Positions 5,099 to 64,000 of a stretch of 64,000 bases of DNA are shown here, piece after piece (within the stretch, counting starts at the first letter, position 1; each line of letters opens with the position of its first letter). The notes below the pieces were generated by a model. The model saw only the letters and a list, made by a program, of their open reading frames with translations, was not told where the DNA came from and ran no database searches. Both the position numbers and the translations under genes were made by a program. This DNA is from Reclinomonas americana ATCC 50394 (lineage: Eukaryota): assembly GCA_048213135.1 (NCBI GenBank), contig PS015061.1, forward strand, positions 178,628 through 242,627. Reading direction: 5' to 3'.

Positions 5099-8000
5099 AT
5101 CTCTCTCCCTGTCTCTCCCGTCTCTCTCGCTGCCTCTGTGCTGAACTTCCCTCAGTTCTCAAGCTACCTTACTGCTGTTCCTTTCATTGTCCGTATTCTC
5201 CGCTGCCTCCTTCACTCTCTCCCCCTGCTCTCTCTCCCTCTCTCTCTCCCTCTCCCTCTCTCTCCCTCTCTCCCCTCTCTCTCCCTCCTCTTGCTCACCT
5301 TTCCCTCTTGACAGCGTCCGCCGCGCCTACCGCGCCGAGGGCGGCCCCGACTCATTCCTGGTGCGCTTCTGCAACTCGCTGCTCGGCTTCCACATGTCGG
5401 TGCGCCTCGAGCGCAGTTTGCGGCACTGCCACGACCTGCTGACGGCGTTCTCGCTGGGCGCCGGTCTCATCCTGTACGGTGCAGTTGCGTCGAAATGCAA
5501 TTTCTGCAGTTCGCTCCTCCGTCATCCCGCTGCGAGTCGCCTCATTGCATGTGTGCAGTACCTCACTGATTGGACGTATGGGCCGAACTTTGGCGAGGAC
5601 GGCTACGAGGTCATCAAGATCATTTCGCTCGTTCTCAACCTGGTCACGTGCTTCTTCATTTGTCGCTACTACAAGCTGCGCACGGACCGGCAAAAGTTTG
5701 TCGTCAAGTCGTCGACCTCCAGCATTCTCAAGTTTGAGTTCTGGCGCTCCTCGTACCCGATTCAAGTGAGTGTGCGACGCTCTGCTCCTCATCCATCTTC
5801 TTCGTTGATGCAAAGCTGCTGGTGTCGTATTTCTTGCTCTTCTCTTTCTTTATCGTCTCATCTTGTTGTTGATGTTGATGTCGTCCGTGTTCTTCTTACT
5901 CTCCGTTTCTCACGTTTCTCTTTCTCTTGAGGTCGATGCGTTGCTATTGCTGTTACTGCTGTTGTCCTTGTCCTACTTCTTCTCTTTGTCTTCTTCACGT
6001 CATTGATGTTGTCCTTCATCTTCTCCGTGTCTTCGATTGTCACTTTTTCTTCTTCTTCTTCTCCTTGCTGTTCTTATTGTGGTTGTTTGTTTACATCTTC
6101 TAGTTTTCTTCCTGTTGTTGCAGCTGTCATTATCCTGGATCTTCTTCTTCATCATCTCCTTTCTCACCCTCACCCTCCTCCTCCTCCCTCATCTTGTTGT
6201 GACTGAAGCTGTTCTCTCCCTTCTTGCCCTCCCTCTCCTATCTCTTCTCCTCCTCCTCTCCCCCCCCCCCCCCCCCTCCGTCGTGCCCCCGCTCACTGCT
6301 TGACCGCGACGCAGTTGTTGCTGGAAATCATCGCACACCTGGCGCAACCATTCCCGTTCCTATCGCGAGTGTGGTACGAGAATGACCAGCTGTCGATTTT
6401 CGTGTGCCTCCGACTGTACGTGATCTTGCGCTTCGTGCGCGACCACGCCGTCATCTTCCAGCGGCGCGAGCTGGTGCAGCAGGAGTTGGCTGAGTTGAGT
6501 TTTTGTGCAAGGAACTGCTTTCGACACTCGTCTCTGTTTTGGTTGTCGTCGCACCTCGCACTTTTTATGCCACCGTTGACTCGCCTTTCTTTCTCATTCA
6601 GCCTCTCATATTATCTCTGTGCGTTGCCATTGGCTGGACTCTCTTCTGTTATAATACGCATATGTCTGCTTTGTCAATCTGCCCTTCGCGTTCCTTCTCT
6701 CCTCTGTCTCTCTCTCTCCTTTTCGACACACATCGTGCTCTTCCTCATCGTATTCTCGCGCGCGCGCGCTCTCTCTCTCTCTCTCTCTGCATTGCTGTTG
6801 ACTCGCTTTCTCTCTTTCGTTCTCGACGTGTGTCTCTCTTGTCTCATGCTGCCTTCGTCCTCGTAATCCTGTCTCTTGTAATTTCAACACAGTTCCCTCT
6901 ATCTTCAATCTGGCTTTAGTATTCTCTCCGTGTGGCTGTCGCCTCATCTTTTTCTGTCATTCAGTTTTCTCAGTCTGTTTTATCTCGTTCTCTCTCTCTT
7001 CTTGTCTCGTCTCTCTCTCTCTGTCTCTCTCTTTCTCTCTTGTGTCGTCTCTCTCTCTCTCTCTTGCCTCGCCTCTCTCTCTCTCTTGTGTCGTCTCTCT
7101 CTCTCTCTCTCTTATGTCGTCTCTCTCTTGTGTCGTCTATCTCTCTCTTCTTGTCAGCACGTCTCTTTCTCGCTTCATATTCTGTTTTTTTGGCCTTACT
7201 CTTTTAATGTTTCCTCATTTTGTTGTTGACCCATCTCTCCCCTTCCCCCCGTTCCCCCCTTTCCACTTACCCCCTTTCCCCCCTTCTCCCTTCCCCCTTC
7301 ACCTTCTCCCCTTACCCTTCCCCCCCTTCCCCCTTGTTCCCGCCCTCCCGCAGACACAACATGTCCTACAAACTCGGCTGGCGCGCCGCCTTCAAAATGC
7401 TCTTCTACTACCGCACCACCACCATGTTTGTGATGGCCGCGGTGTTGACGATTCCCCTGCTCGCCTTTATGGTGTGGCAAGCGGAGCGCTTTGTCGAGGG
7501 TTCACTCTTCAACAACTACTTTAACTGCCTGTGGGTGAGTGAGTGAGTGAGTGGACGGCGTGATCTATATTTTCTTACTCGTAATTGCAGTTTGTGTACA
7601 TTACCATGGCAACGAGTTGCGTTCTCTTTGTCTGTGCGTGTGACCATTCTCTTTCGCGTCACCCACTCCACTCTACATCACAGTTGGCTACGGTGATTTC
7701 TACCCGGTGGGCGTGCAAGGCAAGCTGGTCGTAGTCAGCATCGGCATCTGGAGTGCGCTCATGCTCGTGCTGCTGGGTGCCTTGGTGACCAACAAGATCA
7801 AGCTGACGCGCCAGGAGATGTACGTCACTCAAGCCACAGACGCGTGATGCAGATGACAATCGACTCACTCTCACACACGCACAGTCTGGCCATGAAGGTA
7901 GCGTTCGAGGCACGTCGCAACCGCAATCGTGCGCACGCCGCTGCGCGAGTGATTCAGTATCCGTGGAGGTGAGTGTTGCGATTCCAGTTGCACAGTCGTG

Positions 8001-10069: not shown

Positions 10070-11679
10070 TCATCGCCGCGCCGCACCGGCGGGTGGCGCA
10101 GGAGTTGCTTTCGCCCCCGCAGGCGGTGCAGGAGCTGCCTTCGCCCCCGCAGGCGGTGCCGCCGGCTTGCCAGCTATTGCCGGAGCTGCCGGTGCTCCAG
10201 GCACGGCCGCCACAACACCACTACCACCAGCGGCGGCAGCAGCAGCAGCTGCAGCTGCTGCAGCGGCAGCCTCCTCCTCCTCCTCATCCACATCGGCAAC
10301 CACATCCGGCACCGCCGTGTCCATGGTCAACGCAAACGCCACCGTCTTCAGCGGCGTCGCGGGACTCACCGTCTGCGGACCAAAGTCGCGCTGCACAAAC
10401 GTCACATTGCCGTCCTGGCGCATCACCATGATCGTGGTGGTGCGCGTGCCGTACTCGGGACTCCCGGAGACGTAAATCGGCGACAGAAAGCGTTCCCATT
10501 CCACACCCACACCCGTGTGCGGCAACTCACCGTCCGACGCCCGCGACTTGTCGGCCATCACCTCGAACAGATCGTTCAGTCGATCCTCCAGGTCCATGTC
10601 GTCGCCCGTCGACGATAGCAAACGATTCAACAAGGTCATGGCACGCCTACACACGAGGAAAGGTCAGTGGCCTTGCAATCACAACAAGAAAGAGAAGTAG
10701 GAGGGAGGGCGTGCCTTTCTTTCGGCCAGTTGCGATCGAGACCGATTCCGTTGCAGAGCGAATGCATGCCCGGCGTCACCTCCTTGTACTTGACCTTGCC
10801 GCGTTGCGCGCTGCAGAGAATCAAGACCTTATTCCAATCGCCGCAAATCAAGTTGAATCCCGGGTACTCCTTGAGGCGCTTGGAGACGCGCGACAGGTAC
10901 CGTCGCGGCGGCAACACCGACGTCAGATAATTCGCCACCAGCTTCCCGCGACTCTTTTTCTTGGTCGCCTTGGCGCTCTTGGCGGTGGTGGCCACCGACA
11001 CCACACTCTCATCGCAGCTGCCCATGGGCGCCACCGAGTTCTCCACCGACGCCGCTCCATCATCGCCCACGCCCGATCCCTCGCCTCCAAACTCATCCTC
11101 ATCGCTCATTCCCGACGACGATGGCGGTGGTGGTGGTGGAGGCGGCTGCGGAGCAGCTGCTGCTGCTGACTTCATCACTGGCGACTGCATCGATGATGGA
11201 GAGAACACCTCGTCGGAGGCAGAGGGCGGTGGCGGAGGCTGCGTGAGCTTCGACGCCGCCATATCCTGATCCGATCGTATGTTGGTGAGCACAGCGAATC
11301 GCGCGGTCATTGTCACGCTGTTGCTATAAAAGTGAGCGACGGAGGGCGAGAGAAGGAGAGTGCAACGCGAAGAGCGAACCCGATCCATGTGCCGCCTCCG
11401 TCCTGCGCAAAGGAGAGGAATGAGCGCAGATGTTGACACATAGAAGCCTCTGCCTTTCAACGCAACGAGATCGCGAGGTGCGAGGACATCAGGTGCGCCA
11501 TCGCCGGTCCAGAAGCGCGCAAGGGAAGTCGGGCGATCGAACCTGTGAGAAGAGAAACAAATGAGGGCAGTTGTCTTGTTGCTTTTGTTGTGTAAGTGGC
11601 ACCTCTCATCGCGATTGTTGAGCAGGATGAGGCGATAGCGCGGGTGTGAGGGGTCCCAGAAGAACACAGTGAGGCACAT
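10070..11679 (-). CDS. TANGO2: TANGO2 / NRDE-family protein with low-complexity insert and Ala/Pro-rich tail; 5 exons
   Basis: N-terminal MCL, LLNNRDERFDRPT, RDLDGGGTWIG, FAVLTN, SRGKLVANYL, YPGFNLICGD, LSPIYV, YGTRTTT. Confidence 0.92.
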
Positions 11680-11762: not shown

Positions 11763-13002
11763 ATGTTGCGCTTTCCTGTGAGAGAGAGAGAGAGAGAGTG
11801 AGAGAGAGTGTGTGTGAGAGGGAGAGGAAGAGAGAGCGAGTGAGCAAGCGTGTGTGTGATCGTGTGTGTGTGCGTCTGCCTGTCTCCCACTCTCTCTCTC
11901 TCACACACACACACTCTCTCTCTCCTGTCTCTCTCTCTCTCTCTGTCTCTCTTTCTCACACTGTGTGTGCAGGGCAAATCGTCTGTTTGAGGCGGTGGAG
12001 GCGCGCGATTTCGACGAGACTGTGCGACTGGTGGAGAGTGGTGCTGAGGACATCAACGCACAGAATGCGCAGGGGAATACGGTGTTGCACTTGGCGGCAA
12101 TGTCGTTGCGTTGTTGTTATCAAGTATCTCTCTCCGATCCTCTCTCTCCTTAGCAGTGAGGGAAGCAGAAGGGGGAGGGAGGGAAGAGTTGGAGAGACTG
12201 CGAGAGATCCATTGTGTCTCGTGCTCTCTATCTATCGCAGTCTCTCGTCCTTCTTTCTGGCGGTGTCTCGGTCTGTCGGTCTTTATCTCTTGCAGTCTCG
12301 TCGTCACGATGCCTCTATCTCTCCTTGATCGATCACTGTGTCTGCGGTCTCTGTTTCTCTCACCTCTTTCTCTCGTCACTCTCTTGTCACCCTTTCTCTC
12401 TCTTCTCTCTGTTTCGCTCTCTCTATCGCTTATGTACTCTCTGTCTCACTCGCTCATTCTCCAGTCTTTCGCTGTTTTCCTTGCGTCTTTCTCTCTCTCT
12501 CTCTCTCTCAGTGCTCCTTTCCTCTTTTCCACCTCTCTGTCTCTTCGCCTGCTGTCGTTTCCTCCTCGGTTCACTGGCACTGTTCACGCTTTTTCGGGCT
12601 CGCAGTCTGTTGACTCTGCCTCTCCATCCCTTCTCTGTGTCCCTTCTCCTGCTTTCGGTCTCCTGTTCTCTCTCACCTGTTCCATCACTTCTCTCTCCTT
12701 TCCCTTCCTCACTCTCTCTCTCTCTCTCATCTCCCCCCTTCGCCTTCATAGTAAGGACGAGAAAATGTGCTGCTTCCTCGTGGAACACGATGCCGACATG
12801 AGCGTAGAGAATCGCGACGGCAAGTCACCGGTGGCGTGCGCACCAGCCCGTTTGCGTGGAATGATGAAGGGTGCGGCGAGGATGCGCGATGCTTGTGATG
12901 AACGTAGCCTGACTCTGTGTTTGTGTAGCCACCAAGGAGATCAAGGAGCTGTATCGGCGACTGGAGAAGCGCTTCCAGCAGAACTCGGAGAACGCCTCAT
13001 GA
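11763..13002 (+). CDS. Small ankyrin-repeat protein; exons 11763-11764, 11973-12104, 12752-12870, 12929-13002
   Basis: ANRLFEAVEARDFDETVRLVESGAEDINAQNAQGNTVLHLAA...CFLVEHDADMSVENRDGKSP matches the ankyrin consensus; start codon reconstructed as AT|G across intron 1. Confidence 0.85.
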
Positions 13003-20787: not shown

Positions 20788-22408
20788 ATGGCCACCTGCA
20801 GCTTCAGCATCGGCGACAGCACCGACGAGGTGAAAATTCTCCTCTACTCCCCTCCACTCCAAAAAAAATGCTCGCCTCCTTGTCGCGCATTGCACTCACC
20901 CACGCACGTCTGCAGAGAAAGGCAAGTGCCACTGCGGCCACCAACGGAGGCAGCACTGCAGTGGCCAAGACCGCATGGGACGAGGTCGAACAGGGTGCAT
21001 TCAAGCGCTCGGCCTCTGTGTTTCGCGACTTTATCGCCCCCGGAACCGAGTTCCCACCCGAGGTTCCCCTCACGTTCACTCACTGTGTTGTGCACGTGCG
21101 CGGACTCACTCACTCTCTCGCAGGCCGGGCGATACCACTTGTACATTTCGTTTCGTCTTGTTGTCTCCCTCCTTCGCTTTCGTTCGTCCCTCTCACTCGC
21201 TCCTGCGCAGCTACGCGTGTCCCTGGTGCGACGAGTCGTTGGCCTGCTCTGATCCGCCTTGTGCACTCACCTTTTCTCTCGCGCGCGCAGGGCATGCCGG
21301 ACGCTCATGGTGCGCAAGCTCAAGGGCCTGGAGGATGTCATTGGTCTCAGCGTGGTCAACACGCTGCTGAAGAGCGGTGGTGCGTTCGCGTCTTTGTGTT
21401 ACTCGCGCCACGTGGCGTTGTTGTCTCATACCCTTGTGCGCAGTGGGGTGGACGTTTGGCAGCGACGAGCCGGGAGCCACCGAAGATCCGGTGAATGGAT
21501 TCTCGCGACTGGCCGAGGTGTACTTCCAGCAGGTGTGTGCGCCCCCTCCTCTCGCTTTCTCCTCCTCCGCTAACCGACGAGGAATCGACATGATCAGAAT
21601 CCCGAGTACAAGGGCAAGGTCACCGTGCCGGTGCTCTACGATACCAAGACTCACCGCATTGTGAACAACGAGAGGTCGGTATTGCCCAGCACAGCTCGCT
21701 CTCTCGCTCGTGCCACTGTGCTCACTTTTATGGCATACACACAGCTCCGAGATCATTCGCATGTTCAACACCGAGTTCAACGCGTTCGCGAAGAATCCCG
21801 AGCTCGACTTGTACCCGGCTGAGCTGCGCTTGCAGATCGACGATGTCAACTCGTGGGTCTACGATCAGATCAACGACGGCGTGTACCGCTGCGGCTTTGC
21901 TACCACCCAGGCGGCCTGTTGCGTCACGTCTCCTCTTTCTACCATTCTCCCAATCCCTCTCACAGCGCGCTCGTGGGCAGACGACGTGGCCGTGCACAAG
22001 CTGTTCGAGGGCCTCGAACGCGTGGATGCCATCTTGGCCGAGAACCGCTACCTGTGCGGTGCGCGCTTCACCGAGGCCGACGTGCGTCTCTTCACCACAC
22101 TCGTTCGGTTCGTCGCCACGCTCCTCTACCCCCTCCGAAGCACAACTCACGCGAGACACGCACAGCTTCGACCCGGTCTACACGGTGCACTTCAAGTGCT
22201 CCCTGAAGCGCATCGCCGACTACCCCAACATCAGCGGCTACCTGCGCGAGGTGTACCAGATGCCGGGCATCACCGAGACGGTGGTGATGGACCACATCAA
22301 GAAGTTGAGCTTTTGTGACAACGCTGTCTCTTCGCCCCCTCTCCGTCTCTTCTTTCGCTCACTTCCCGTCGCTCTCTGCTTCTCTCCCCGCTCTTCTCGT
22401 CGTGTCTG

Positions 22409-22450
<42 letters not shown>

Positions 22451-22812
22451 CATGTCTCTGTGCTCTCCTCCTCTCTGTTCACGTCTGCCGTGCCCTTGCA
22501 TTCCACCCTTCCCTTCTCTTCTTCTCTCTTTTCCATCTCTCTCTCGGTCTCTTCCCCCTTCCCATTCTCTTTCTCTCTCTCTCTCTCTTTCTCGTCGTGT
22601 GTCTCCCTGCGCTCTTCCTTCTCATGTCTCGCCCCCTTGTCTCGTTTCCCTTCCCCCTTGTCCCCCTTGTCTCCCTCCTCTCAATTCCCTTCCCCTTGGA
22701 CAGGCACTACTACCACTCTCACCGCCAGATCAACACATACGGCATCGTGCCCTACACCGACGAGAGCTGCCTGCTGCTGCCACACGGCCGCGACCACCTC
22801 CCCTCTCAGTAA
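20788..22812 (+). CDS. Glutathionyl-hydroquinone reductase (GST Xi/omega-like, ECM4/YqjG family); 11 exons
   Basis: EFPPEAGRYHLYISYACPWACRTL, VTVPVLYD, IVNNESSEIIRMFN, INDGVYRCGFA, TEADVRLFTTLVRFDPVY, HIKKHYYHSH. Confidence 0.95.
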
Positions 22813-32787: not shown

Positions 32788-32859
<72 letters not shown>

Positions 32860-35800: not shown

Positions 35801-36415
35801 GCCATTCTGCTGGTGATTGACAAGAGTTGCTCATGAGCATGTCGGCTTGCGCAACAACTGACACGCTCTGCAGGTCGACTTTGCGGCTGTTGGTCTCGCC
35901 TTTTTCGTGTCGATTCTCACGCCACCAAACTTGGCACAACTGGCCGGTGTGCTGGCCACACTCATGTGTGCCATGATTTCCGGAGCGTATCCTTTTTTTT
36001 TCGTTGTTATTCTTGTGCAGCCGTCGGCATCTTTCGTCGTTGTCTGGACTCCATAACTCGCCACTTCTGTGCACAGTTTCCCGACCATCAAGATGCTCGG
36101 CGACATGTTCTTCCCCATGAATATTGCGCCAAACTTTTCGTTCCTGCGCTGGTCACAGGAGGCCTATTACTTGATCGAGATTGTCGGCTGGTGCGTATAT
36201 CCTCGTGCAGTTGCAGGCGTGTGGGCGAGCAAGGATTCTCACCCCGCGAGCAACGCAGGCAAGACGTGTACGACACGAGCCAGGGCATCTCCGACATGGG
36301 CTACAACTTGGACAACTACGCTCTCGATCTCGGCATGACACTGGCCTTTGGAGTCATCTTCCGCCTGGCAGCCTACGTCACCCTCCTGCTCAAGGACCGC
36401 GACAAGCGACGATAA
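27664..36415 (+). CDS. ABCG (White/ADP1-like) half transporter with signal peptide, very large N-terminal ectodomain and Cys-rich CPxGxYCP repeats; about 40 exons
   Basis: Spliced Walker A MGPSGAGKTT, Q-loop VGFVPQED, signature ISGGQRKRV, Walker B LLFLDEPTSGLDS, H-loop VIHQPR, NPPDFFMD, FWRESASG, FLRWSQEA; repeats CPQGAYCP, CPAGSYCS, CPAGWYCP, CPKGSYCK. Confidence 0.92.
32789..32856. repeat. (TG)n microsatellite in an ABCG intron
   Basis: Uninterrupted tg run of about 34 units. Confidence 0.95.
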
Positions 36416-36884
36416 GAGCCCTCACACCCTGTTCGTAATAAAAATGAGAAAAAAGTTTAGTGAATGAGACAGTGACGGACAGTGCTCGCGCGTGTTCCCG
36501 CAACTGTGCACTTCTATGGACTTTTTTGGTGCGTTTGCCACACGACTCAAAAGTGTCTCTTCTCTGCTCACTTTACACGCACGTTGCACCAGATGCCTCC
36601 AACAGCTCCGACATTCCACACGTTCTGGCCACTCCACCATTCCTCGACGACCGTGAGTTGTCGCACACGCACACAACACACACTCTCTCTCACTTTCATG
36701 TGTGTGTGCGTCAGACAACGTCCCGCGCTCTGGCTACAACCACCATCAGCCTTTGTGTGACACGGCGGCCTCACTCAACGCCGCCTGTCTGCGTCGTCGC
36801 ACCACTCTGACGACGCCCACTCCTGTGCTGCGCCGCTCACACTTGCCAGTGACCAGGTCGCCTGCGTTGCGCGGCACACGGACC

Positions 36885-43634: not shown

Positions 43635-44182
43635 AGAGGAAGGAAGGAACGAAAGAAACGGAAAACGGAACGGACCGACGACNNNNNNNNNNNNNNNNNN
43701 NNNNNNNNNNNNNNNNNNNNNNNNNNNNNNNNNNNNNNNNNNNNNNNNNNNNNNNNNNNNNNNNNNNNNNNNNNNNNNNNNNNNNNNNNNNNNNNNNNNN
43801 NNNNNNNNNNNNNNNNNNNNNNNNNNNNNNNNNNNNNNNNNNNNNNNNNNNNNNNNNNNNNNNNNNNNNNNNNNNNNNNNNNNNNNNNNNNNNNNNNNNN
43901 NNNNNNNNNNNNNNNNNNNNNNNNNNNGACTCACTCATGCGCTTCGCCACCTTTCCCTCCCCTTCCCTCCCCTTCCCTCCCTTTCCCTCCCCTTCCCTCC
44001 CCTTTATCCACTCACCCTGGCCGAGATCACCGGCAACACATACGACACCGCGACAAACACATCACCGCCGTCCTTGGCGAACTTGGTCACCGCAAAGCCC
44101 ACTCCCGTGTCAGAGTCACCCCGTCGCCCGTACACCAGCGGCGGGCTGCTGTCCGGATAGAACCTGCACAAACAAGTGACGA

Positions 44183-48789: not shown

Positions 48790-51700
48790 ATGTCAGAGAG
48801 CAGCGCGGATGATCATGCGGTGCGCCTGTTCATGCATGTGCATGCCGTACGTGTTCCGTTTCACTCATGCACACACAGAGCAATCCGCCACCACCTCCGC
48901 CTCCGCCACCGCCTATGCTCCCTCCACCTCCGCCTGCCTCACTCGCCAGGCGCGACACTGTAGAGGAAGAACCGAGGTTTGCCATGCACTTTTTGTCACC
49001 GGGAAAACTCCACTCTCTCTCTCTGACACACACACACACACACACAGGAGCACTGCTGGAGAGGCACAAACAGCAGCAGAGAGCGTCGTGTCTCCAGTCG
49101 CTGCACATCTGCATCACATCTCCTCCACTGCTGCTGCTGGGAGCGCCAGTGGAAGTGGAGGTGATGTGAGTGGAGATGATGACCGCGATACCTCTGTGGA
49201 GGCAGTGGTGGCCCCGGGTCTGCGTGTGCAGATGCGTGCCACTCGCCCGATGAGGTCTGTGTGTGTGTGTGGCGTCGTCGTCGACTGTCTGACATTTGCT
49301 GGTGCCTTGTCCGCGTACTCACTGGCGTGTGTGTGTGTGCTCAGTGTGACGGTCAGTCGCCGGGAGCAGGCGCGTCTTTTGCGTGGACTCGATGGTGACT
49401 CGTCGCCGTCGCCGGAGCCACCTGTGGTACCGCCGCCGGTTTGTGTGTCTCTCTCTGTGTGTGTGAGCCTGTTTGTCGTCGTCTGATCGGTATTGGCGTG
49501 ATTATTTTTTTGCAGTTCTTGGATGTGTCGGCGGTGGCGCCGCCAGCGGAGCAGCCGAGAAACGTCTCCATGCTGGACTCGGTTGGTTGTGCTGCTCTCT
49601 CTTGCTCTCTTTGTCTCCCTTCCCCTTTCCCTGCCCTTTCCCATTCCTTACGATTCCTTCCTCGCAGGCTTCACTTGCTTGGGCCGGCGCAGCTGCTGCA
49701 AGGTGACTATTGCATCTCTTGCCTCGCGCTTGCCCTCTTGCATTGACATTGTCGTTTACTGTGACGCACAGTGGAAGCGGCGCTCAATCGACCACGCACC
49801 AAGTCGTGATCTCCGACAAGGAGCGTGCGTACGCCGTCGCACAGGAGGTCATGCACGCGCTGACAGTGCATGCTACGGCCTCGACACATCGAGTTGCGTG
49901 CGAGCTTCTTTGCTGCCTGCACGAGCATGACGGATGATTGTGGTTGACGATTTTGATCCGTGTCGGCAGCCGCTCGAGTTCCACATGGCCGAGTCGGCAG
50001 AGTCGTCGGCGACCCTGGAACTCGTGACGGGGACGAAGAACGATGTGCACGTGCGCGAACTGGCGCTGGTGACCAGAATTCGTGCCACAGTGGAGAGTGG
50101 AAAGCAGTGCTGCAAGGCCATTTATGCGTACCGACCGGTGGGTCCGTCGTGCCCTTCCAACGCCGAGGTGCCGGTCGACGACGCGCAGCGCCAGGAATTT
50201 GAGGAGCGGCGATGCAAAGTGTTTGCGTACGCACTGCGGCCGCTGCAGGATGCCGCCGCGTGGCTGCGGCAGACGTGCGGCTTGGTGCAGGAGGCCATTG
50301 CTTTCGATGCCCAGCTGGATGCGAAACTCGTGGTGTCCGACATCTTCATGTCTGAGCTCACGCAGCTGCTGGACGCGGTCGTGCAACTGGAAGCGTATGT
50401 ATACTCGCGACCGTGTCTGCAGAATGACTTGTCGCTGTACAATCGGTACGCCGCATGATGTTTTCCTCTTGTGTGTGCGCATTTCTCTAATCCACATCGC
50501 CACAATAGGGCCCTCAACGTGAGGTCACGTAGTCACGATCACCACGATGACTCGTCGTCGGTTGTGAACCTGCAGTTGTTCCTGGCGCAGCCGGCGTGGC
50601 AGCCGCTGTTTGCTGCCATTGAGGAGTCGCATACGCGACACAGCCGAAATGTGCCGCGTCTGCTGACCGACGTGCTGGCCTGCTGCTGCACCACTGCCGA
50701 GCAGCAGTCGTACACCACTGTGGACCAGCGTTACGCTTGTGTGCGTGTGACTGCCTTGGTTCTTGCCATGCTGCTCAAGTTGCGCAAGCCGTCCGACAAG
50801 CCCGCCAAGCTGGCCGACCGCGACATGTGTGGCAGTGGTGCACTGGGCGACAGTTGCCTGCGGTTGATGCGAGTTGAGTATCGTGTTGACGTTGATGGCG
50901 TTTGATGCCCCACCGATCTCATTGTGCGCATACAAAACAGGAGCTTCCGATTGTGCCCGTGTACGCCGATGTGGTGCTGTCGCTGCCGTCTGCTCGCATC
51001 CTGCCGCCTGCCTACGTGGACGAGTGGCAACTCATGCCTCCGGCCACCAGCGCCGGCGCCATGACACGCTTGCGAGACAGGTGCTAGTGCTCACTGTGGG
51101 TGCTTGCGAAATGAGTGTCCTCTTAAACTTCTTTCTATTTGCTCCAGGTATCTTTTGTCTGCGGAAAAAGTGCGAAAGCTTCGCGACTTGGGCGACAGGT
51201 GGGCGCGCCAGCTCAGCGATCTGATGAGCGCGGTGCGGAAGAAGTCATGCGTCACTTTTCACATATCTCGCTGTCTCTCACTCTCTCGCTCAGTTGAAAG
51301 CCGCATCGCCGACGCCGGAGGTGCTCAAGTGGGCGTACGACCTACTGTGCGATGCCTTCCATCTCCTCCTCAGCACGCAATGTGTTCTGCGCGAGCATCT
51401 TGCCTGGCACTACACCTTCCCCAAAGTCATCGAGGATGGCGAAGAAGGCCGGTTGCGAGACCAGTACTATCTCGCCCTGTGTGGGTCAATGGATCGAGAC
51501 GAGCTGCTGATGCTCATCGAGTTGGTGGCCACAATCAAGGAGCTTGAAGGTGACTGCCGATGGCATCTCTTCTCTTGTGCGATAGCACTGCCTTAAAGAG
51601 ATCGAATATTGTGTTCTCCAGGTCACGTTTTGGCCAAGGAGTCCACTCTGGCACCGATCATTCGACGGCACGAGAACCACGTCGTCCAGCAGTTCGTGCA

Positions 51701-52414
51701 GCGCGAGATGCGCGATTTGCTGCGCTCCAAGGAGAAGAACGGCAAGAAGCGCCAGCAGCAGGTTCTGCAAGCGCTACGCGACGCTCTTGCGGATTGGTAC
51801 GAATGCATGGAGCCAGTCAACGACCCCGCGCTGAAGGGCCGCGATCTGTCCAAGACCAACGTCGACTGCCTGCCCCCAGTGCCACATCGTACCGTGGGCC
51901 CAACAGCTGGCGAGGTCCGCACGTCAACTTCTATCCGTATTTTTTCTGTGTCACTCCATTCTCACTGCACTGGTCGTCGTGCACGCTTGCAGTTGCTGCT
52001 GCTGCGCATCCGCCTCAACTGTCAGGTGAATACGCGTGCTCCACTCGGCGGCGGTCTCTTCAAGCATCCCGACTGGAAGGATCGTGAGGTCGACCAACTG
52101 CGTGCATTCCTCGCTGGAGTGGAGCACTTCCAGATGGTGCAGGCTGTCGATCCCACCGTCCGACAACTCGCCAACGTGGGCGACCTGTGGTTCCGCGAGA
52201 ATCACATTTGTCTCAGCGCACGGCCACAAATGCCGGTCGAGTGGTCGGTGCCGTTCACCATGCTGAAGCTCATCACCCGGCCCGACAACTCGGCGGCGAT
52301 GGACTGCGTTCCAGCCATTGTGTCGATTTACAACGATGCTGCCACTCGTGCGCTCCACGACCTGCGCCAACAGCACTTGTACGAGGAGATCGAGGGAGAG
52401 GTCCGTACTGTTGT

Positions 52415-52450
<36 letters not shown>

Positions 52451-53040
52451 NNNNNNNNNNNNNNNNNNNNNNNNNNNNNNNNNNNNNNNNNNNNNNNNNN
52501 NNNNNNNNNNNNNNNNNNNNNNNNNNNNNNNNNNNNNNNNNNNNNNNNNNNNNNNNNNNNNNNNNNNNNNNNNNNNNNNNNNNNNNNNNNNNNNNNNNNN
52601 NNNNNNNNNNNNNNNNNNNNNNNNNNNNNNNNNNNNNNNNNNNNNNNNNNNNNNNNNNNNNNNNNNNNNNNNNNNNNNNNNNNNNNNNNNNNNNNNNNNN
52701 NNNNNNNNNNNNNNNNNNNNNNNNNNNNNNNNNNNNNNNNNNNNNNNNNNNNNNNNNNNNNNNNNNNNNNNNNNNNNNNNNNNNNNNNNNNNNNNNNNNN
52801 NNNNNNNNNNNNNNNNNNNNNNNNNNNNNNNNNNNNNNNNNNNNNNNNNNNNNNNNNNNNNNNNNNNNNNNNNNNNNNNNNNNNNNNNNNNNNNNNNNNN
52901 NNNNNNNNNNNNNNNNNNNNNNNNNNNNNNNNNNGCTGCCACCTCCGTCGCGCGTCCACCGACCTACGCGCCGAACCAACGACGACTTGTTACGTAGGAG
53001 GAGTACGACAGGGAGGAGGTACCGGTACCGTCGTTGTTCT

Positions 53041-53084
<44 letters not shown>

Positions 53085-56000
53085 GTACAATTCACCTCAC
53101 TTCGTTTTCGCACAGGCCAACTTGGTGTGGGATTGGTTCAGCGGGAAACTGACTGACCAGGTGTTCTTGTGGCACAAGACGCACGCAGCGTGGTGCGTAT
53201 TTTTCAGTGCCGTGCACCTGCAATCTAACTAATACTCTTCTTGTGTCGGTGTGGTGTCGCCGCAGCATGATGCTCGATCAGTACTATTTGCATGAGGGCG
53301 TGCCGAAAAAGGAGCGCATTGCTCGTCTCAACTCCATGCTGCCGTCGCGCCAGCGTTTCCACGCACTCGTATCTGTGCGCTACATTCAGCTGTTGTCGCG
53401 CTCCATGGACATCCACGATCAAGTCACAAACAGCCTTGGCCGGCTGCTGCGCGAGAACATCCAATCGCTGCTGTTGTACTTGGAGTCGCTGAAGCTGACG
53501 AAGCTGCATGTGAGTCATTGATCGATCGCCGTCCAGCCACTTTGCTTCCCCCTCTCACCCTATCGCAGTATTTCACTTCGCGCTTCAACGTTCTGCGGCA
53601 AACACACGCCGCACTGCTGCGCATGTTCCCCAAGTTGGATCCGTGGGATGATTTGCTTGCCGAATGCAACGGAAGCACCTCGCTCGTGAGCTTTGACACG
53701 CGCATCGTTCAGCATGTTGCGTCTCGTTGACTGTTGCGCACTTTGAACTCTGTCACTCGTCTCACGTCGAAAACACGCAGGTGAATGCCGAGTTGGCGAA
53801 TGATCTGCTCCCGTGCTACTCGTACAACTCGGACACGCAGCGCTTCTTGCGACTCTCGAAGAACACCGACTACCATCGACCAAAGACACCGCCGATGCGT
53901 GCAATCTTTCACTTTGGTTCTGCGGTGTGTCTGTTGTCGACTGTGGGGACCGCGTGCGTGAAGAATGCTAATCGTGCTTGCCGAAATAGACCGTGCGAGC
54001 GGCGTACGACAAGCTGGCCGCGCTCAAATCCGGTTATTTTGGTGTGTACCACATGCAGGCACTGGCGCAGGTCGTCGGTCCCGCGTCGCTCGCCTCGGTG
54101 GTGAATTCGGTCACCGAATTTGTCGGCCGTGAGGTTCGCCTGCATTTCATCGCTTGTGTGCGCACCTCCTCCTCCTTACGCTCACCACTGTTTCGTGCAG
54201 TTTGGCGAGTCTCTCGAGTCGTTCCTGCGCGAGATCGATCCGGCGATCAGTATCCCCATTCGCCAACCAATAACTCAAATGCAGGCTGCCGGTGCGGAGA
54301 AACAGTCTTGATCCATCAATTCATTTGTATGCTGGTCACTGATGCGCATGTTGTGCAGTGTGCTTCGACCGCCTCCGTGTGATGCTCAAGGATTTGATCT
54401 CGTACGAGGCGCTTCGCGACGGCATTTTCCAGGTCCTCAAGGCCGGCGGCAACGGCTTGGCCTTTTTGCACTTGATGGACCAGGTTCTCGTGCAGCAGGA
54501 CCTCTCCGTCATGATGGTGGCCGCGCCCTTTGTGGGTATCTCCCCTGCCGACGCCCGTGTCGACTCCTTTGTGTTCCACGTTGCGTCCTGCGACTGCATT
54601 TGTCGCTGCCACTTGTTCCTCTGTGAATGGATATTCAATCGTGGCGCAGGACCTGCATGCTGGTCACGTGCACAACGCCATCAGCTTCTGGGAGCAAGAG
54701 GAGCAGGAGTTCTTCCAGCATGTGGATGAGCAACGAGCGGACCAAGTGCGGCGCACGCCCGAGGAAGTGCAGCAGCGAGCGACGGACTTGGGTCGGTTCG
54801 TGTTGGAGCGCGTCGGCCAATTGTGCCAGGAGCCCAATTGTTGCGTGGCGAGGGGCAAAAAGAAGCTGGGTGCGGCACCACACTGAACGTTCCGCGTCGC
54901 ACAGGGAGCACTTACATGCCACGAGGTGATGCGTCCGTCCTCGACGGAGCCCTGTGGCGACTTGCTCACGCTGTACGTGCGCGAGCACCGACGTGGGGCG
55001 GCGCGGAGACCGCCAAAGGCCACGTGGCAAACTCGTGCGAAGGCCGCCAGTTCCACCGCACATGGAGTGCATTGCTTTTCGTTGCGTCCATGCCACATCA
55101 CGCACCAGTGGATTCACCCACCGTCCTTATCGCCCGCTTTGTATATTGCAGGCATTTTGCATGAATGTGACGTTTGCCGACATTATTCGCCAGTCGACTG
55201 CGACGACACGCGCCACTGGTGCCGACGTTGGAGTCACTTTCCAGACCGTAGATCTGCAGCGGCCAGTCAACAGTGCGGGCGACGGACTTCTCTGGGCAGG
55301 GTGCGTATGCGTTATCGTCTTCTTTTTCGTTCATCACTCGATCACGTCCTCACTCTGTCGCTACGATTATGCAGATGCTTCTTGGCAATGGCGTTTGAGC
55401 AGCAGCACGTGTGGCACGCGACCGATCACTCGCGCATTCTTCTGCAGCTTCACGAGATGCAGCGCAGCATGCACCCGCCCATGCCTACCCTCGATGTTGC
55501 TGGCTGGACCGAGTTCACAATGAACGCGCGCTGGGCTCTGGCGCTGTGCTCGCGGATCGAGGGCGCCTTTGGTGCGCTGCAGTACATGCCCACCGCACGC
55601 TCACTGCCTGCGCTGCCGATACCGCAGGAGCGCCCTCGTGTCCGACTAATTCACGGTTGCGTCACTGGCATGCACGATTGCGATTCCTCCGTTTGTTCTT
55701 CTGATTGCCTCGCCGCAACAGTGGTGAACGACGCGAGCGCTGCCGCTGCGGAAGGGGAGTCCTCGACGGCGACGACGGAGGGTGAGGACGGAGCCACCGC
55801 TGCCGCTGATGCACCAGCGCCACCCATGCGTACGCAGTCGACCTATCAACCCGCACTCGAACGCATGCACAACGAGTCACAAGTGTGGGCTCCGGGCATG
55901 TTCTCCTCGTATCAGTTGGTGTGGGACGACTTGAATGTGCCTGGGCGCATGTGGAACCCGGAGCATGCCGCTGCACTGTCGGTAAGCCGTCGCGGTTGGG

Positions 56001-57135: not shown

Positions 57136-60100
57136 ATGGCACGCCCGCGCCCTTTGGCCGGACCCTTCCACGAGTACAATGATTTCATCGAGGCCATGGA
57201 CCACTACACACCGGCCTCCAGTACCGCCTCCATCACCTCCATCGACTTCCCCATGGGCCTGAGCGCCTTGTCGGTGCGCATGCGTCTGCAGGAGGCACTC
57301 CAGCGGGGTGGCGCGTGCCCCACACCCAGCTCCATGTCGGCTGCCTCACTCGATCCCATGTCGACTCATGGCAGCCTGCAAGGCGACGAGGATCTGGCTG
57401 CGCCACTGCCGCCACCGACAATGCCCAACAGCCCACCGCCTCCACCGCCCTCCCCGCGACTTCGTTGCGCGGAGGCGTCGGCCGCCGGCACTGTGCCCTT
57501 TGGTGGCAGTGACCCGGCGCTGTCGGCCCGCGTGCACTCTGCTCGCGTCTCCTCGTCGTCGCTGTTCTCGGCCATGGCCGCGGCCACTGCTGTGGTGGAG
57601 ACGGCGACTCCGCGCCTTGCAAGCATGCCGCCGCCACCACCGCCTTCGGCACGAGACTTGACCGAGTCGCCGATTTATGCGTCGCCGCCTGAGCTGCTTA
57701 AGAGGCGAGTGCGCGCTGGGTGGCAGCAGGTTACTTGTGTTGTTTGTTGCTCACTTTGCGCTGTGACACAGACATCGTCGAGTCAGCGGCATGCATGATT
57801 CGATGACCGACGACCCGTTCGACCACTCGCCGCCACCTCCCGGCGGCCTGCTGTCGGCGCGACGATTTGATGTGGCCTCACCGCCGCGTCCGGTCCCGAC
57901 GCGCTCCGTTCCTCTGTCGCAGGCTCCCCTGTCGGCACGCCGGTCAACAGAGACCGCTATCGTTCCCACTCCGCGCGACAAGTTGCGTTCCTGATCATGG
58001 CCCTTGTGTCACAGGAAAAAAACTGACATTTCCCCCGTGCGCATGACACAGCGTGCTGAATGACATTGCCGACGACCCAGCGTCGCTGCTCTCCGACGTG
58101 AACCTGCAGTTTGCGGATCAGGATGTGCTGCGCTTTGCAAAGTTTAGCGAAAAGATCAAGCGATCATTACGCGTGCGCCGCGTCTCTCCGTGGCCTTCCT
58201 CCGACCCCGAATCGTGCTCGTCAGCGGCCTCGTCGGCCCGACTCGGTGTCGGCTGCACACAGCCAACCTCAGGTCGTGTCACACCGGCGGCCATGACTTC
58301 GGTCGCGCAACTGGCCACGACGGTCGGCAACATGCCACCGCCGCCCCCACGCTGCGCGAGCATGCCTGGTGCTGCCATGGGTGCAACTGCGCATGCACGT
58401 GGGTGGCGATCGCACAGCCCGGCATTGTCGATTGACGGCACCAACACGTCGGCCGACATTGTGTCGGCCACGGCGTTTGAGGACACGGACCGCGACACGA
58501 TCACGCCCGTGCATTTGCGCCACGCGGAAGCAGTAGCTCCGGCCACCGCTGGGGTGACCGGCGGTCATGCCCACAACCATCGCCACCACAGTCGCCATCA
58601 CAGCGACGACGTCGACGATGACGACGACGATGACGGAGACTGGTGCATCGACGAGGTGGATGGCGAGGTCCACGAGACGATCGGCGGCGAAGCCAAGTCG
58701 CTGGACACGGGCGAGCACACTGACGAGGCCGAGTCGACCAGCGACGTCGGTTCCATGTCGTCTGCATTTAGTGTGGCTCTCCGCCGACGATTCAGCCAGG
58801 ACCAGGAGAACATGCCGCCGCCCCCACTGCCACTCAAGGCCGCCACATCGTGCTCCGCCACTGCCCCGGGTTGCGCCACTCGCCATCCGCTGGTGCCGCG
58901 ACTGGCGCTGGCCTCGCTGCAGTCGCTGGCGGCCCCCGTGTGTGCACCAGCTGCTGCGTCCTCGGAGCCGGCCATGTGGCATCCACCGCGTCACGTGGTG
59001 CGAGCCAGCGGCAGCTCCCGTTCGTCGATCGACAGCGCTGGTAGCAGTGTCCGCCCACCGCCAGTGCCAGGTCCACGCCTCTCGGCGGCCAGCGGCGATT
59101 CGCTGCCGACACCGCGCTCGGCCGCTGGTGGACCGTTTGTGGCTCCACGCCCGCCATCCAGCCGCCTCAGTGCCGGCTCGTCATCGTCGGGCCACAGTGC
59201 GTTGCCGACTCCGCGCCTCTCCCTCAATCTGCTCTCGGCCGCCTCCAATGGCACCACTCCGCGCCTGTCGTTCGGCACATTTTCGTCAGTGTCGTCTTCG
59301 GCCTCTTCATCGACCGCCATGACACCACGCTCAGTGATTACGGGCGGACTCACGCCGCGAAGCGGAGGCGCTGCCGGCAAAGTGGTGAGCATGTCATTGT
59401 GATACTCTTCTTCTGCACTTCACGCTCACGTTGCACACTGTGGTTCAGATTGCTCCACCGCCACCGAGCCCCTTGCCCACCATTCCACAGTCCGACAGCA
59501 CGGCGCCAAGCAGCAGCACATTCACTCACACCAACAGTGGTGTTGCCCTTGACGCGCCTGCATTGCCGACTGCAGAGCCAACACCCACTGTGGACGTGCC
59601 AACACTGGCGACCGTGGTGACCTCGGCGCGACCGGACAACTCGGCGGCCTCGAAACTGCAGCGCATGGAGTGGATTCTGCAGCGCGATCGCCGTCAGAGC
59701 TGGCAGGCACTGTTGGCCTCCAAGGAGCGCGAGAAGGCCTTTTCGTCCACGGCCGCCGGTCGCCGCGTGCTGCAGCAAATTGGTGGCTCCTCACCCAACA
59801 AGCGCACGCCACGCGACACGGCCGCGGCCTTGACAGCCACCCTCGAGGCGCAGGCGCTGGACCAGGCCAAGACACATGCGTACCTTCGCAGCCTGGAGGT
59901 GCCGCAGCCGTCCGCGCCTCCAATGCCCACCAATAGGTTCCCCAACCTGACGGTGCGCGTCGGCAGTGGCGGTCCGCACGATTTCTTGGTGCAGGCACGC
60001 AGTGCGAGACAGGAGGAGCTGGCTCTCGAGCAGCAACGCCTCCTTACACCACGCGGTGCCAGCGAGGAGTTCATCCCGGAAGGTCGCAGCGGACACTGCT

Positions 60101-61893
60101 TGGCGTCGTTTGGCGAGCACGCCGTTCTCGCTTTCGGAGGCTGGGCAGGATACGGGCACCTCATGAACGACGCATTCTTCATCGACCCAGGTGTGTGTGT
60201 GTGTGCTACTAGCCAGTTTTTGTTGTGGCTGAATGAGCAAGGCGAACTCATGTGCATCCTGCTCAATAGTCTCGGGTCGATGCCGCCAGGCACACATCGT
60301 TGGCGATATTCCACCGCCTCGTGCGCACGCTTCGCTGGTATCTCTCCGTGACGCCACCAACACAGGTTGGTGCGCATTCCTGTGGGGCGGCCTTGGCGCC
60401 GACGATCGTATGAGTGACTCGTACATTTTCTACATCGGTGCGTTGCAAGTGCGGTCATCATTGTGCTTACGGGGGGGGCGTGTACTCACAATGTCGCGAT
60501 CAGATCTGGAGAACTTTGTGCTGGAGAGTCGTCAGGTGACCTTCCGAGGTGAGAAACCAACGCCGCGCAGCGGACACTCGGCCACACAAATCTCCGACGA
60601 TGAGGTGCTGCTGTTTGGTGGATTTGATGGCGACTACCGACAGGATGGATACATCTTTGACTTGGGTTGCGTTCGCTGCACTGCTCACTGTGTCACTATT
60701 ATGCAAGAAGCTAACAGAGCACTGCAGTCGCCCGACGGTGCAAGCGCTTGACGTGGGCTCGCGGTGTCATGCCGTGCCACCGCTCCGGTCACGTGGCGGT
60801 CATGATCGACGAGACCCGCATGCTGGTGTGGGGCGGTTGGAACACCGATAAGGACGTCGACCGCCACGCATACATTCTCGACACCAGTTGCGTTTGCAAT
60901 GCGCAGTGATGTGCAATGAGTGGCGGTGATGCTCATACGCCGACGAGCGCGCAGATTCGTGGTTGTGGAGCAAGCAGCGAATTGTGGGCGACGCCCCGCA
61001 AGAGTCTGTGTTCGAGGCCGCCGCCACGATGGTTGCCAGCAACAAGCTGTTGCTGTTTGGAGGTCGCAATCGCGACAACAAGTATCCGCGGAATACCTAC
61101 GTTATTGATACCAGTTGCGTGCGCATCATGGCCACTCGGCTTTCCCGTCGTGTTCGTGCGTGCTGACGTGGTGTGTGTCGGTCGCCAGTCACCATGGAGG
61201 GTATTCTGCTGGTGCTGGACTCGGAGGAGGCACCAGGTCCGCGCCAAGCCAGCAGTCTCGTCCCCGTCGGCCGCAATCGCGCGCTCTTGTTTGGCGGCTA
61301 CCGCCGCACTCGCATGGCCGACGTGTATGTCTTTGATTTGAAGAAGGGTTTGTCAGCTCCTACCCCCCCCCCCCCCCCCATGTGTGCAGTCGACGACACT
61401 CATTCGTGGCCTGTTGCTGTAGATTTGTCACTGCGCACACTTGATGCCGGTGCTGTGGCCAGCAGCGGCATGGTCGAAGCGTTGCAGTGGAGCGCGCCAC
61501 CCAAATCGAAGCAGTTGCGTGGCATGGAATGCTGCCACTCTCTTATCTCCAGAAACTCACGTGGTCGTTCGCGCAGCAGTAATGATGAAAACCGCGATCC
61601 GGTCACACTGAGCCCCGTCAACGGTGTGTCGGTTCAGCGCGTGAAAAAAGGTCGCTGGGAGAAGCGACATGAGGCCGAGGACTCCACACTTTCCGCACTT
61701 CTGGCCACACTCACTCCGTCGTCCGCCTCGTCGACCGCGGCAGCAGCCGCAGCCGCAGCCGAGCGCGCTCGACGCACATGGGATAGCACGGTACGCTTGT
61801 TATGTTGATCTGATATGTGTGAGGCCGTCACTCACCTGCCCTTTCTCGTTTCGCGTGCAGACTCCACAAGCACGCATGATGCTGCGACGGTGA
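57136..61893 (+). CDS. Kelch-repeat beta-propeller protein with very long Ser/Pro-rich N-terminus; about 11 exons
   Basis: Six blades: PEGRSGHC..LAFGG, PPPRAHAS..FLWGG, PTPRSGHS..LLFGG, PCHRSGHV..LVWGG, ESVFEAAA..LLFGG, PGPRQASS..LLFGG. Confidence 0.88.
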
Positions 61894-62252
61894 ATCAACT
61901 CCCGCACAGCACACCATAGTACAGCACGCAGCATAGCACACAGCACTCGGCGATTTTCAACAAACACATGTTACTTTTTTGTTTCATGCTTCTAAGATCG
62001 TCTTCTTGTTCAATGCGTGTTTCTACGTGTGGGTGTGGGGTCATCAAGCCCAAGGAGGGGCTTACTCGGTCGCCTCGGAGAGGGCGCTGGCGCTGGCACT
62101 CGGCACACCGCCGTCGCTCTTGCTGGCGTCCTGCAAATTATCAAAGCTGCTGGCGCGCCCACGCACTCGTTTCGGTGGTGTAAAGACCACGTCCTTGAGC
62201 GAGTCCACAGCCTGGAGGAGGGGAGATTTAGCGGCGATCGCTCATCGTTCAT

Positions 62253-64000
62253 CTATCCCGAGACTGGCGAAGAAGTTACCTTGTCGGCAATGCGACGGGC
62301 AGCCTGTCGCCACCCAGCACCATCGACGGCTGCCGCGCACAAGAGTGAGAAACAGGGTGCGAACTACGCAGCAAAACCAACAAACAAAAAAATGCACACC
62401 AGCTTGCTTCAGTCGCTTCCAGTTGTCTACCAACACGTCGAGCTTGAGCTTCTCCTCGATGAGGTTCTTCTTCTCTTTGAAGAACTGCTTCACCGGTCTG
62501 ATGGTCTTGGTGTCCTGCAGCTTTCTCATCTGTGCGCAGCGGAAATGATGAACACTTTGCTGCCATTCCGTTTTCTTGCACCCGGCGGCACGCAACATTT
62601 CTCTTCAACATCATGGCAATGCCACCGTCACGGCGCAACTCGTCTTGATAGATGCGATGCATGTGCGGACTGGTGATGATGAATGCCAAGTGAGTCAACA
62701 ACGCACACGATGTGATGATGACATCGCATTGACTGGCCACGAAACGTTTCCACGACGCGATTGAACACGAGATGGCAGAAGTGGGCGAACAGAGCCATGA
62801 AAAACACCGACCAACTGTTGGCCAACAGCGCAATCCCGTAGTAGCCGGAGAGTCCATACAGCGAGTCGGGATGGTTGAGATATCTACGACATAGGAGGAA
62901 GGAGGGTGGCATGTTTCTTGAGTTGACGCGACAAACGGCAAGTGACGGCATCGGAGGCGACTCGAACCGGTAGATTCCCGTGTAGATGAGCTTCGGTGGC
63001 AACTCGGTGACAAAAAAGTCGCCATAGTACCTGCGTGGTGCAGCATGCGCCTTTTAGATTCCCTCGAGCACCACCTTCCTCTCTCTTCTCTGTCTTCTCT
63101 CACACACACCATCCAAACAGGCCGAGTGATTTGAGTGCCGACACGGAGCCCCACATATTGACGCCACACAGCAGCTGCATCAAAAAAAGCGCCGCAGTGA
63201 GGGAGTGTACGCACGCGCGCGTCAAACAATGATGGCAGCACACACAGCGCACCAAGCCAGCCAGAGCCTTCCACATGTAGCGCTGGTCCAGAATGTTGGC
63301 CGGGAACTCGGCATACGCCCAGGCGGCCACCACGAAAGAGATGCCGTTCATCGTAAAGGCAATGTTGTAGAGCATCTTCCACGTCTCGAAGGCGTCGCGA
63401 TTCGTCTTGCCCTCGGCTATGAAGCGCTTTGTCCACATGCGCTCCTTGCCCTGGTAGTACAACAGGAAGCCGAGTCCCAGTCCCGAGAACATGCGCCAAA
63501 ACACAAAGTTGCTGTGCGTTGCGCCAGAGTGAGCGCACAGCAGCAAAAGACACATAGTGGTGTGCCAGACGCAACGATAGCAGGAACCACTGCTGCACGG
63601 CCAGGGCACACAGCAGGAGATTGTAGGCCACCACAAACACCAGGCACAGGTCAGAGACTCGGGAGAGCGACAGGTTGAAGAGGAAGATGGACTCGCGCGG
63701 CGACGAAAAGTAGCCGTGTTGCGGATGATAGAGGATGCGCTCACGCTCCGACTCGACCTGCTGGTTGTCGGCGCCCATGGAACCATAAATCTTGTCCATG
63801 TCTGCTCTCATGCACACAGATAAGTGCGTGCTCTCCCAGAGAGTGGGGAACAGAAGACGAGCAAGCAACGCAACGAGGCTCCTCGACCACCATGAGGAAC
63901 ACAAAGTGGCAAAAGTGCACAAAGACGCCGACGTAGAACGGTTCGTACGACAGCGCAAAGAGTGGAGCGCCGTACACAAAGGCGTAGCTGAGGGGCACCA
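62253..64000 (-). CDS. CHO2-like phosphatidylethanolamine N-methyltransferase, 5'-partial (continues beyond the window)
   Basis: FLMVVEEPHMDKIYG, NFVFWRMFSGLGLGFLLYYQGK..WTKRF, AFETWK..YN, SLGLFGWYYGDFF, LIYTGIYRYLNHP, VETPHMHRIY. Confidence 0.85.

Follow-up and report, generated by a model that had tools for sequence, protein, structure and literature searches.

Must the spliceosome cut a 5' splice site (donor) in the same register in which it recognizes it? This question is raised by a 64,000-nucleotide stretch of the genome of Reclinomonas americana ATCC 50394 (contig PS015061.1 of assembly GCA_048213135.1, positions 178,628 to 242,627 of the forward strand), which we refer to as the window; it has a G+C content of 57% and two N gaps, at 43683-43927 and 52451-52934. 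A sequence-only reading had proposed that, next to introns with a conserved G at intron position +5, an abundant second class begins with GTT[GT][CA]G[TC] and carries this G at +6, accounting for about 40 of some 170 hand-traced introns. The results presented below support the existence of this second class, in which the core of the donor lies one base deeper in the intron than usual and the cut is still made directly before the GT.

When the window was parsed with a procedure whose knowledge of donors was limited to the GT dinucleotide (the global donor-blind parse), 59 short introns were obtained. Twenty-eight of these have G at +5 (class A), 19 have G at +6 and not at +5 (class B), 15 of which begin with GTT, and 12 have neither. 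With a slash marking the splice junction, the consensus of class A is G/GT(G)(C)G(T), and that of class B is N/GT-T-G-C-G-T. The proportion of class B introns, 19 of 59, is in line with the frequency that had been claimed. The proposal also implied that a G at +6 is enriched over background among GTT donors, and this holds: 15 of the 24 GTT donors of the donor-blind set have +6G without +5G, against a background of 20.9% over the GTT sites of the whole window. In an enlarged set, which is not donor-blind because verified and claimed introns were added, +6G without +5G is found in 23 of 34 GTT donors (p 5.7e-9). Unless stated otherwise, the comparisons between classes given below cover 33 class A and 23 class B introns.

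Several features show how the two classes relate to each other. A position weight matrix (PWM) of class A donors that was moved along the class B donors gives, with all five columns, a score of +4.04 at an offset of +1, of -6.19 at offset 0, and negative scores at -2, -1, +2 and +3; with the unforced columns only, the score is +1.80 at +1, -1.90 at 0 and -0.75 at -1. Class B donors have G at +6, U at +7 and the remaining consensus moved by one, as a shifted register demands. Furthermore, a G at the last exon position (-1G) precedes 27 of the 33 class A introns and 3 of the 23 class B introns (Fisher p 3.5e-7); it is found at none of the 37 claimed sites versus 12 of 76 unclaimed motif sites. 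The loss of this preference is expected, because in a shifted register +1G would take the place of -1G; no -1G requirement is seen in class B, where +1G would face C9 of the U1 small nuclear RNA (snRNA). The core of class B is also stricter, with +4G in 18, +5C in 20 and +7U in 20 of the 23 introns versus 19, 18 and 21 of the 33 at the corresponding class A positions, which is expected if the core compensates for lost exon-side pairs. Thus, the share of a quarter to a third of the short introns, the core moved by +1 and the lost -1G preference support, as far as sequence can tell, the claim that a second donor register is used routinely in this DNA.

Three kinds of evidence, all from the one 64-kb window, bear on the question of whether the claimed sites are donors: conserved residues at the junctions, a local donor-blind ranking, and the global donor-blind parse. 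The motif is present at all 37 claimed coordinates, and it takes the exact form GTT[GT][CA]G[TC] at 35 of them, the two departures being GTTGCGA at 19310 and GTTGTGT at 56183. On both strands of the window GTTGCGT occurs 35 times, compared to 12.52 +/- 3.44 expected from 100 dinucleotide-preserving shuffles, none of which reached 35; this excess over chance is explained by donors, because 24 of the 35 occurrences are claimed donors. That cleavage before the GT is set by conserved residues was borne out at nine sites fixed by orthologues or paralogues: one in a K-channel gene (7616), one in TANGO2 (11466), three in a GST gene (21150, 21918 and 22304), two in CYFIP (53716 and 55081) and two in a CHO2-like gene (62745 and 63874). 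Excision of the GT-AG intron at each of these nine sites restores the conserved reading frame. A cut one base further downstream was rejected; it would change the Ile of the K-channel filter to Ser, a conserved Tyr of GST to Cys and a His of CHO2 to Arg.

In the local test, which combined the flanking coding score, an acceptor PWM and an intron-length prior and in which each donor was ranked among the 2-8 GT sites within +/-24 nucleotides, the claimed donor ranked first in 25 of 37 cases versus 130 of 500 random GT sites (26%; binomial p 1.4e-7); motif occurrences outside the claimed list ranked first in 23 of 75 cases. The global parse found 11 of the 37 claimed donors exactly, and added one at 60666. 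A profile test that permitted long introns was confounded by exon skipping, and was rerun with introns limited to 35-110 nucleotides; in this form it discriminated at 21150, 21918 and 53716, weakly so at 50873, did not discriminate at 49893, 54580 and 54840, and was misleading at 55081. Taken as a union, the lines of evidence support 29 of the 37 claimed donors, and we consider the observation of a second donor class confirmed at the sequence level.

The Xi-class GST gene, located at 20.9-22.8 kb on the forward strand, illustrates how the junctions were fixed. Alignment of orthologues by tblastn combined with a reading of the DNA fixed nine introns and gave a full open frame, and the best GST match in a search of the protein collection was 80% identical. 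The class B intron at 21150-21210 (GTTTCGT, phase 2) joins HLYIS/YACPW without gaps relative to the orthologues, its donor being the best of nine (26.5 versus 8.7 bits), and the one at 21918-21980 (GTTGCGT, phase 1) restores TTQAA-Y-DVAVHKLF, in which the Y is conserved in orthologues (best of ten donors, 157.1 bits). A third one, at 22304-22703 (GTTGAGC), is 400 nucleotides long and contains a (CT)n tract; its removal gives DHIK-K-HYYHSH, gap-free against the IK[EHRN]HYY of the orthologues, with 106.0 versus 66.7 bits in the profile test that allowed long introns. The same gene also contains an ordinary class A intron, ctg/GTGCGA, at 21226-21290, placed by the orthologue alignment YACPW/ACRTLM. 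Between this intron and the first of the class B introns, both of them about 61-65 nucleotides long, lies a 15-nucleotide micro-exon (21211-21225, forward strand) encoding (S)YACPW, which is fixed by the orthologue alignment. The first GST intron, at 21063 on the forward strand, starts as gag/GTTCCCC and is demanded by the orthologue alignment FPPE/AGRYHLY; because it has G at neither +5 nor +6, some donors belong to neither class.

In the K-channel gene, the class B intron at 7616-7683 on the forward strand (GTTGCGT, phase 1), which was also found by the donor-blind parse and ranks first locally, corresponds to the sole GT-AG pair (A/GTTGCGT...ACAG/TT) that gives TMAT-I-GYGD. In TANGO2, removal of the class B intron at 11403-11466 on the reverse strand (GTTGCGT, phase 0; local rank 1) links ...APRDL with DGGGTWIGF; on the Pfam TANGO2 profile, exon 1 of this gene covers positions 1-24 and the exon that ends at donor 11466 covers positions 26-48. 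Further along the reverse strand, at 11316-11402, following the TANGO2 exon DGGGTWIGFALR, no GT-AG intron was found that joins in frame to (T)ARFAVLTN at about 11290; a non-GT donor, an assembly indel or a missed micro-exon are possible causes of this gap.

The CYFIP/PIR121 gene (49934-55250, forward strand) is interrupted by the N gap at 52451-52934. In an exhaustive HMMER search its frame reached a best identity of 36%, the top named matches being Mantamonas plastica, Rigifila ramosa and Diphylleia rotans (CRuMs), followed by Balamuthia (Amoebozoa); word-based homologue searches with the CYFIP and CHO2 exons gave no match, and a scan of metagenomes for related DNA returned one locus of 37% identity, too distant for a comparison of introns. 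With CYFIP orthologues of about 35% identity at best, the window looks like DNA of a sparsely sampled, deep-branching eukaryotic lineage. Four class B introns of CYFIP can be described. The one at 53716-53780 (GTTGCGT, phase 0) joins FDTRIVQH/VNAEL, gap-free against FHGRIALH-VIY-EL of Rigifila, and its donor obtains 81.4 bits versus 69.6 for the in-phase rival at 53707, which would remove three residues. The intron at 55081-55151 (GTTGCGT, phase 0) yields WSALLF/AFCMN, matching WSALQF-AFCMP of Mantamonas; its donor comes only third in profile score because of an insert downstream. The donor-blind parse found the introns at 50873-50940 (GTTGAGT; weakly best in the profile test with 5.3 bits, local rank 2) and 54580-54649 (GTTGCGT; local rank 1, the profile test being uninformative).

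The CHO2-like gene lies on the reverse strand and contains two PEMT-like domains. In the first of these, the class B intron at 63802-63874 (GTTGCGT, phase 1), found by the donor-blind parse and ranking first locally, restores VEEP-H-MDKIYG, and its upstream exon corresponds to positions 59-96 of 105 of Pfam PEMT. In the second, the intron at 62670-62745 (GTTTCGT, phase 2; local rank 6) gives RVVE-T-PHMHRIY, which parallels MVVE-E-PHMDKIY of the first domain, and the upstream exon covers Pfam PEMT positions 50-90. Two more class B introns of this gene start with GTTGCGT: 62530-62596 (phase 0; local rank 1; read from the DNA) and 63512-63575 (donor-blind parse; local rank 3). Finally, three consecutive Kelch repeats (...GYIFDL, ...AYILDT and ...TYVIDT; 60455-61400, forward strand) each have a phase-1 GTTGCGT intron at an equivalent position. 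Those in repeats 2 (60887-60954) and 3 (61114-61188) were found by the donor-blind parse and rank first locally, and the exons adjoining the former match Pfam Kelch models; the intron in repeat 1 (60666-60727, tgg/GTTGCGT), which also comes from the donor-blind parse, has the same position within its repeat and had been absent from the earlier list. Because the intron bodies are unrelated, the Kelch introns are older than the duplication of the repeats or were gained in parallel.

How, then, might a donor be read one base away from where it is cut? Apart from their donors, the two classes look alike: the mean intron length is 64.2 nucleotides in class A and 67.2 in class B, a CTCAC-type branch motif lies about 17-19 nucleotides from the 3' end in 26 of 33 and 19 of 23 introns, respectively, so that class B has the branch site of an ordinary intron, and the CAG acceptor and the base composition do not differ. 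We propose that all these introns are ordinary U2-type GT-AG introns forming one population, in which the core U-G-C/A-G-U lies one nucleotide deeper in about a quarter to a third. Compared in this way, the ordinary G/GUGCGU and the second N/GUUGCGU are the same seven-letter word, with the second G replaced by U and the cut moved upstream by one base, which keeps GU at the start of the intron. The core would be bound in a register shifted by +1, most likely by U1 snRNA, with intron +1G opposite U1 C9 and +6G opposite C4, and only later, in the catalytic spliceosome, would the GU dinucleotide determine where the cut falls. Because class B would form too weak a duplex with the universal U1 5' end, the U1 5' end of this lineage is predicted to differ, for instance by a G in place of pseudouridine-5. 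We consider this explanation as a whole, derived from the sequence features above, to have about an even chance of being correct.

Part of the evidence weighs against this explanation, and most of it concerns the pairing with U1. Duplexes were folded between the universal U1 5' end (ACUUACCUG as printed in PMC4856993) and a cleaned class B set (n=21), class A (n=33) and random GT sites (n=300), with nearest-neighbour parameters that take no account of pseudouridine or U1-C. Class A reaches -5.71 kcal/mol, with 25 of 33 donors in the canonical register, whereas class B reaches -1.39 kcal/mol, weaker than the random GT sites (-2.96); only 3 of 21 class B donors adopt the shifted register, so that a shifted helix both more stable than the canonical one and sufficient for binding is not obtained with the universal U1. 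This hints that donor recognition is in some way altered in this lineage, as the sequence-only reading had suggested in naming variant U1/U6 snRNAs or altered donor-recognition proteins as possible causes. The near-invariant C at +5 of class B, which corresponds to +4 of class A, would face pseudouridine-5, where the complementary base is A. Modelled U1 ends improve the pairing: with G at position 5, 12 of 21 class B donors take the shifted register at -4.9 kcal/mol, and over both models (G at 5, or GC at 5-6) the figures are 11-12 of 21 and -4.9 and -6.5 kcal/mol. However, these variants place class B 0.5-1.0 kcal/mol above random versus 2.8-3.6 for class A, and with so small a gain over random, the core may be read by something other than simple pairing with U1. 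In addition, C is found at -3 in 21 of 37 claimed class B donors versus 8 of 33 in class A, where there is no preference, and this C-richness is explained by neither the shifted nor the bulged register. Other points concern the data. No line of evidence supports eight of the 37 claimed donors (6494, 19310, 31234, 33070, 38581, 49893 and 56183 on the forward strand, and 26102 on the reverse strand), the class B comparison set held two impurities (53707 and 52190) and an acceptor, that of 62745, set 4-5 nucleotides short, the three Kelch-repeat introns are not independent of one another, and all statistics derive from a single window.

Some of these points could be turned into the argument that class B is an artefact, made up of wrongly traced introns, of motifs that arose by chance, or of a single T inserted in error by the assembly at GTGCGT donors. 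The eight unsupported sites would agree with this, as would the uninformative profile test at 49893, 54580 and 54840. Such an argument has to contend, however, with the nine residue-fixed sites, with the 25 of 37 donors that rank first compared to 26% of random sites, and with the threefold enrichment of the motif; moreover, an insertion error in G/GTGCGT would have retained the -1G, which is not seen, and a small separate DNA run, possibly from the same sample, which yielded two genomic pieces and no splice joints, is identical to the window over 31061-31713, including the site at 31234. We therefore judge the artefact to be highly improbable. The seven-nucleotide start that many of the introns have in common might alternatively be the mark of a mobile "introner" family or of U12-type introns. 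The all-against-all blastn comparison of intron bodies gave chance 11-12-mers only (8 matches within class B versus 39 between class A and class B), the sole strong match being a self-overlap, and the similarity along the whole intron that an introner family should have was not found. U12-type introns have the donor [AG]TATCCTT and the branch site TCCTTAAC; the donors GTT[GT][CA]G[TC] and the CTCAC branch motif do not fit this consensus, and branch motif and length are as in class A. Because length, branch site, acceptor and composition match and the bodies are unrelated, class B is neither a mobile family nor U12-type, nor a separate population, and the chance that either of these explanations holds is practically negligible.

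The remaining alternatives accept class B as a genuine donor class and differ in what would read it. Class B might have a reader of its own, a second paralogue of U1 (or U6) whose 5' end is complementary to GUUGCGU, and class A would be left to the ordinary U1. That class B is abundant and sharply delimited, pairs worse than random with the universal U1 and only marginally better than random with single or double changes at U1 positions 5-6 would suit such a paralogue, although a single reader suffices in principle, as the class B core equals that of class A but for the offset; we regard the paralogue as unlikely, though it deserves serious consideration. A search of the 64-kb window for snRNA genes found none at gathering or permissive thresholds. 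It could also be that U1 keeps its canonical register and that one U is bulged at +2/+3, with -1, +1 and +2 paired and +6G opposite C4. This register has been validated for some human donors according to PMC4856993, the GU would stay paired, and the C at -3 (21/37) could pair with U1 G11. However, a bulge predicts a -1G frequency like that of class A, whereas 3 of 23 versus 27 of 33 are seen and canonical exon-side pairing is not found, and the duplex folds choose the bulge in 0 of 21 donors with the universal U1 and in 1-3 of 21 with the model variants. Because a simple bulged U keeps the exon-side pairs and the -1G preference is lost, the +1-shifted register is favoured, and the bulge appears very unlikely. 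Finally, the core might be read by a protein (U1-C or the LUC7 family), or by U6 or U5 later in assembly, so that class B would represent an extreme donor type of the "intron-side only" kind. Pairing with U1 was weak in all models tried, and C prevails where pseudouridine-5 of U1 would favour A, which speaks for such a reader; on the other hand, the ACAGAGA box of U6, as known from other organisms, is likewise not complementary to C at this position, and we consider this alternative quite unlikely. For the preferred explanation, that of one population of introns docked in a +1-shifted register, the folding models point to a reader that may be a U1 more altered than those modelled, a U1 paralogue, or a U1 assisted by a protein or U6.

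How does class B compare with donors described in other organisms? In animals and plants, LUC7-dependent "right-handed" and "left-handed" donors are distinguished; as in the window, there are two classes, one dominated by exon-side and the other by intron-side contacts, but the LUC7 classes share one register, whereas in the window it is the register that shifts. Human shifted-register 5' splice sites were reportedly described by Roca and Krainer in 2009, and the human bulge +2/+3 register is said to go back to Roca et al. in 2012. According to PMC4856993 and the review PMC9311317, pairing of U1 in shifted or bulged registers is well established for human donors but uncommon. The former agrees with the rarity that the sequence-only reading had assumed: all validated non-canonical registers together amount to 3119, or 1.5% of 201,541 donors, compared to 25-32% of the short introns for class B, and the bulge +2/+3 register to 68 predicted sites, 54 after curation, of the same donors. 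As described there, human shifted-register sites resemble class B in starting with GU, in having G at +6 and U at +7 with the U1 pairs moved by one, and in that the position of the cut does not follow the register of docking. Unlike class B, whose core GCGU pairs worse than random, they are AU-rich (model .../GUCAAGUAU) and pair with the universal U1 in an uninterrupted helix, and the C opposite pseudouridine-5 is a feature of class B that distinguishes it from the human shifted sites of PMC4856993. The human bulge +2/+3 sites of the same source share with class B the U at +3 and the G displaced to +6, but they imply normal exon-side pairing, whereas class B is without -1G preference. Diplonemids, to which the repeat-rich DNA had pointed, were rejected as a lead; their donors, (G)/GTATG in PMC12621601, are unlike both classes. 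Our literature search, which did not cover the organism's own literature by name, found no report of such a donor class in any organism. Our verdict, as judged from the sequence, is that class B is a new and abundant form of the rare human shifted-register donor.

How U1 passes the 5' splice site on to U6, and which of the two determines the scissile bond, has been investigated for the most part on engineered substrates and on rare exceptions in humans. It is conceivable that the whole lineage splices at least a quarter of its introns via a register displaced by one nucleotide, read by a U1 with a changed 5' end or by a second U1 paralogue, so that docking and cutting are uncoupled genome-wide; we hold this broader view tentatively, and think it slightly more likely to be wrong than right. 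If it is true, the question could be put to the test across the whole genome on hundreds to thousands of natural displaced-register introns, which share their genes with ordinary introns, and the co-evolution of donor sites with the U1 5' end, which is held almost invariant, would be exposed. The organism could then serve as a natural test bed for the choice of RNA cut sites. On the practical side, a large fraction of the exons in this lineage will be annotated wrongly by gene finders that were trained on +5G donors.

Other class B introns were found elsewhere in the window. On the forward strand, the donor-blind parse gave introns at 29112-29179 (GTTGCGT), 30490-30566 (GTTGAGT), 30759-30820 (GTTGCGC) and 57982-58051 (GTTGCGT), all with local rank 1. 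On the reverse strand, an intron in a putative 5'-nucleotidase-like gene (26142-26204, GTTGCGT), preceded by an exon ending in ...LLDAGDFFSG, ranks first of six, and the donor-blind parse gave a candidate at 40048-40114 (cag/GTTTCGT; local rank 1, score 13.5) that had been absent from the earlier list.

Some further properties of the window may be mentioned. Positions 1-8000 show a marked strand asymmetry, with a GC skew of -0.27 and an AT skew of -0.34 to -0.44. On the coding strand of this region, the introns and spacers are rich in (CT)n/(GT)n tracts. Within the intron downstream of the donor at 11765, a (GA)n/(TC)n hairpin-like inverted repeat (11774-11951, both strands) gives sub-threshold matches on both strands to several models of plant microRNA precursors, which are most likely a low-complexity artefact. 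Finally, the region 30900-36420 on the forward strand encodes an ABCG-type transporter, with an intron-split Walker A motif and an ABC2 membrane part, preceded by Cys-rich CPxG repeats, which is an unusual fusion architecture.

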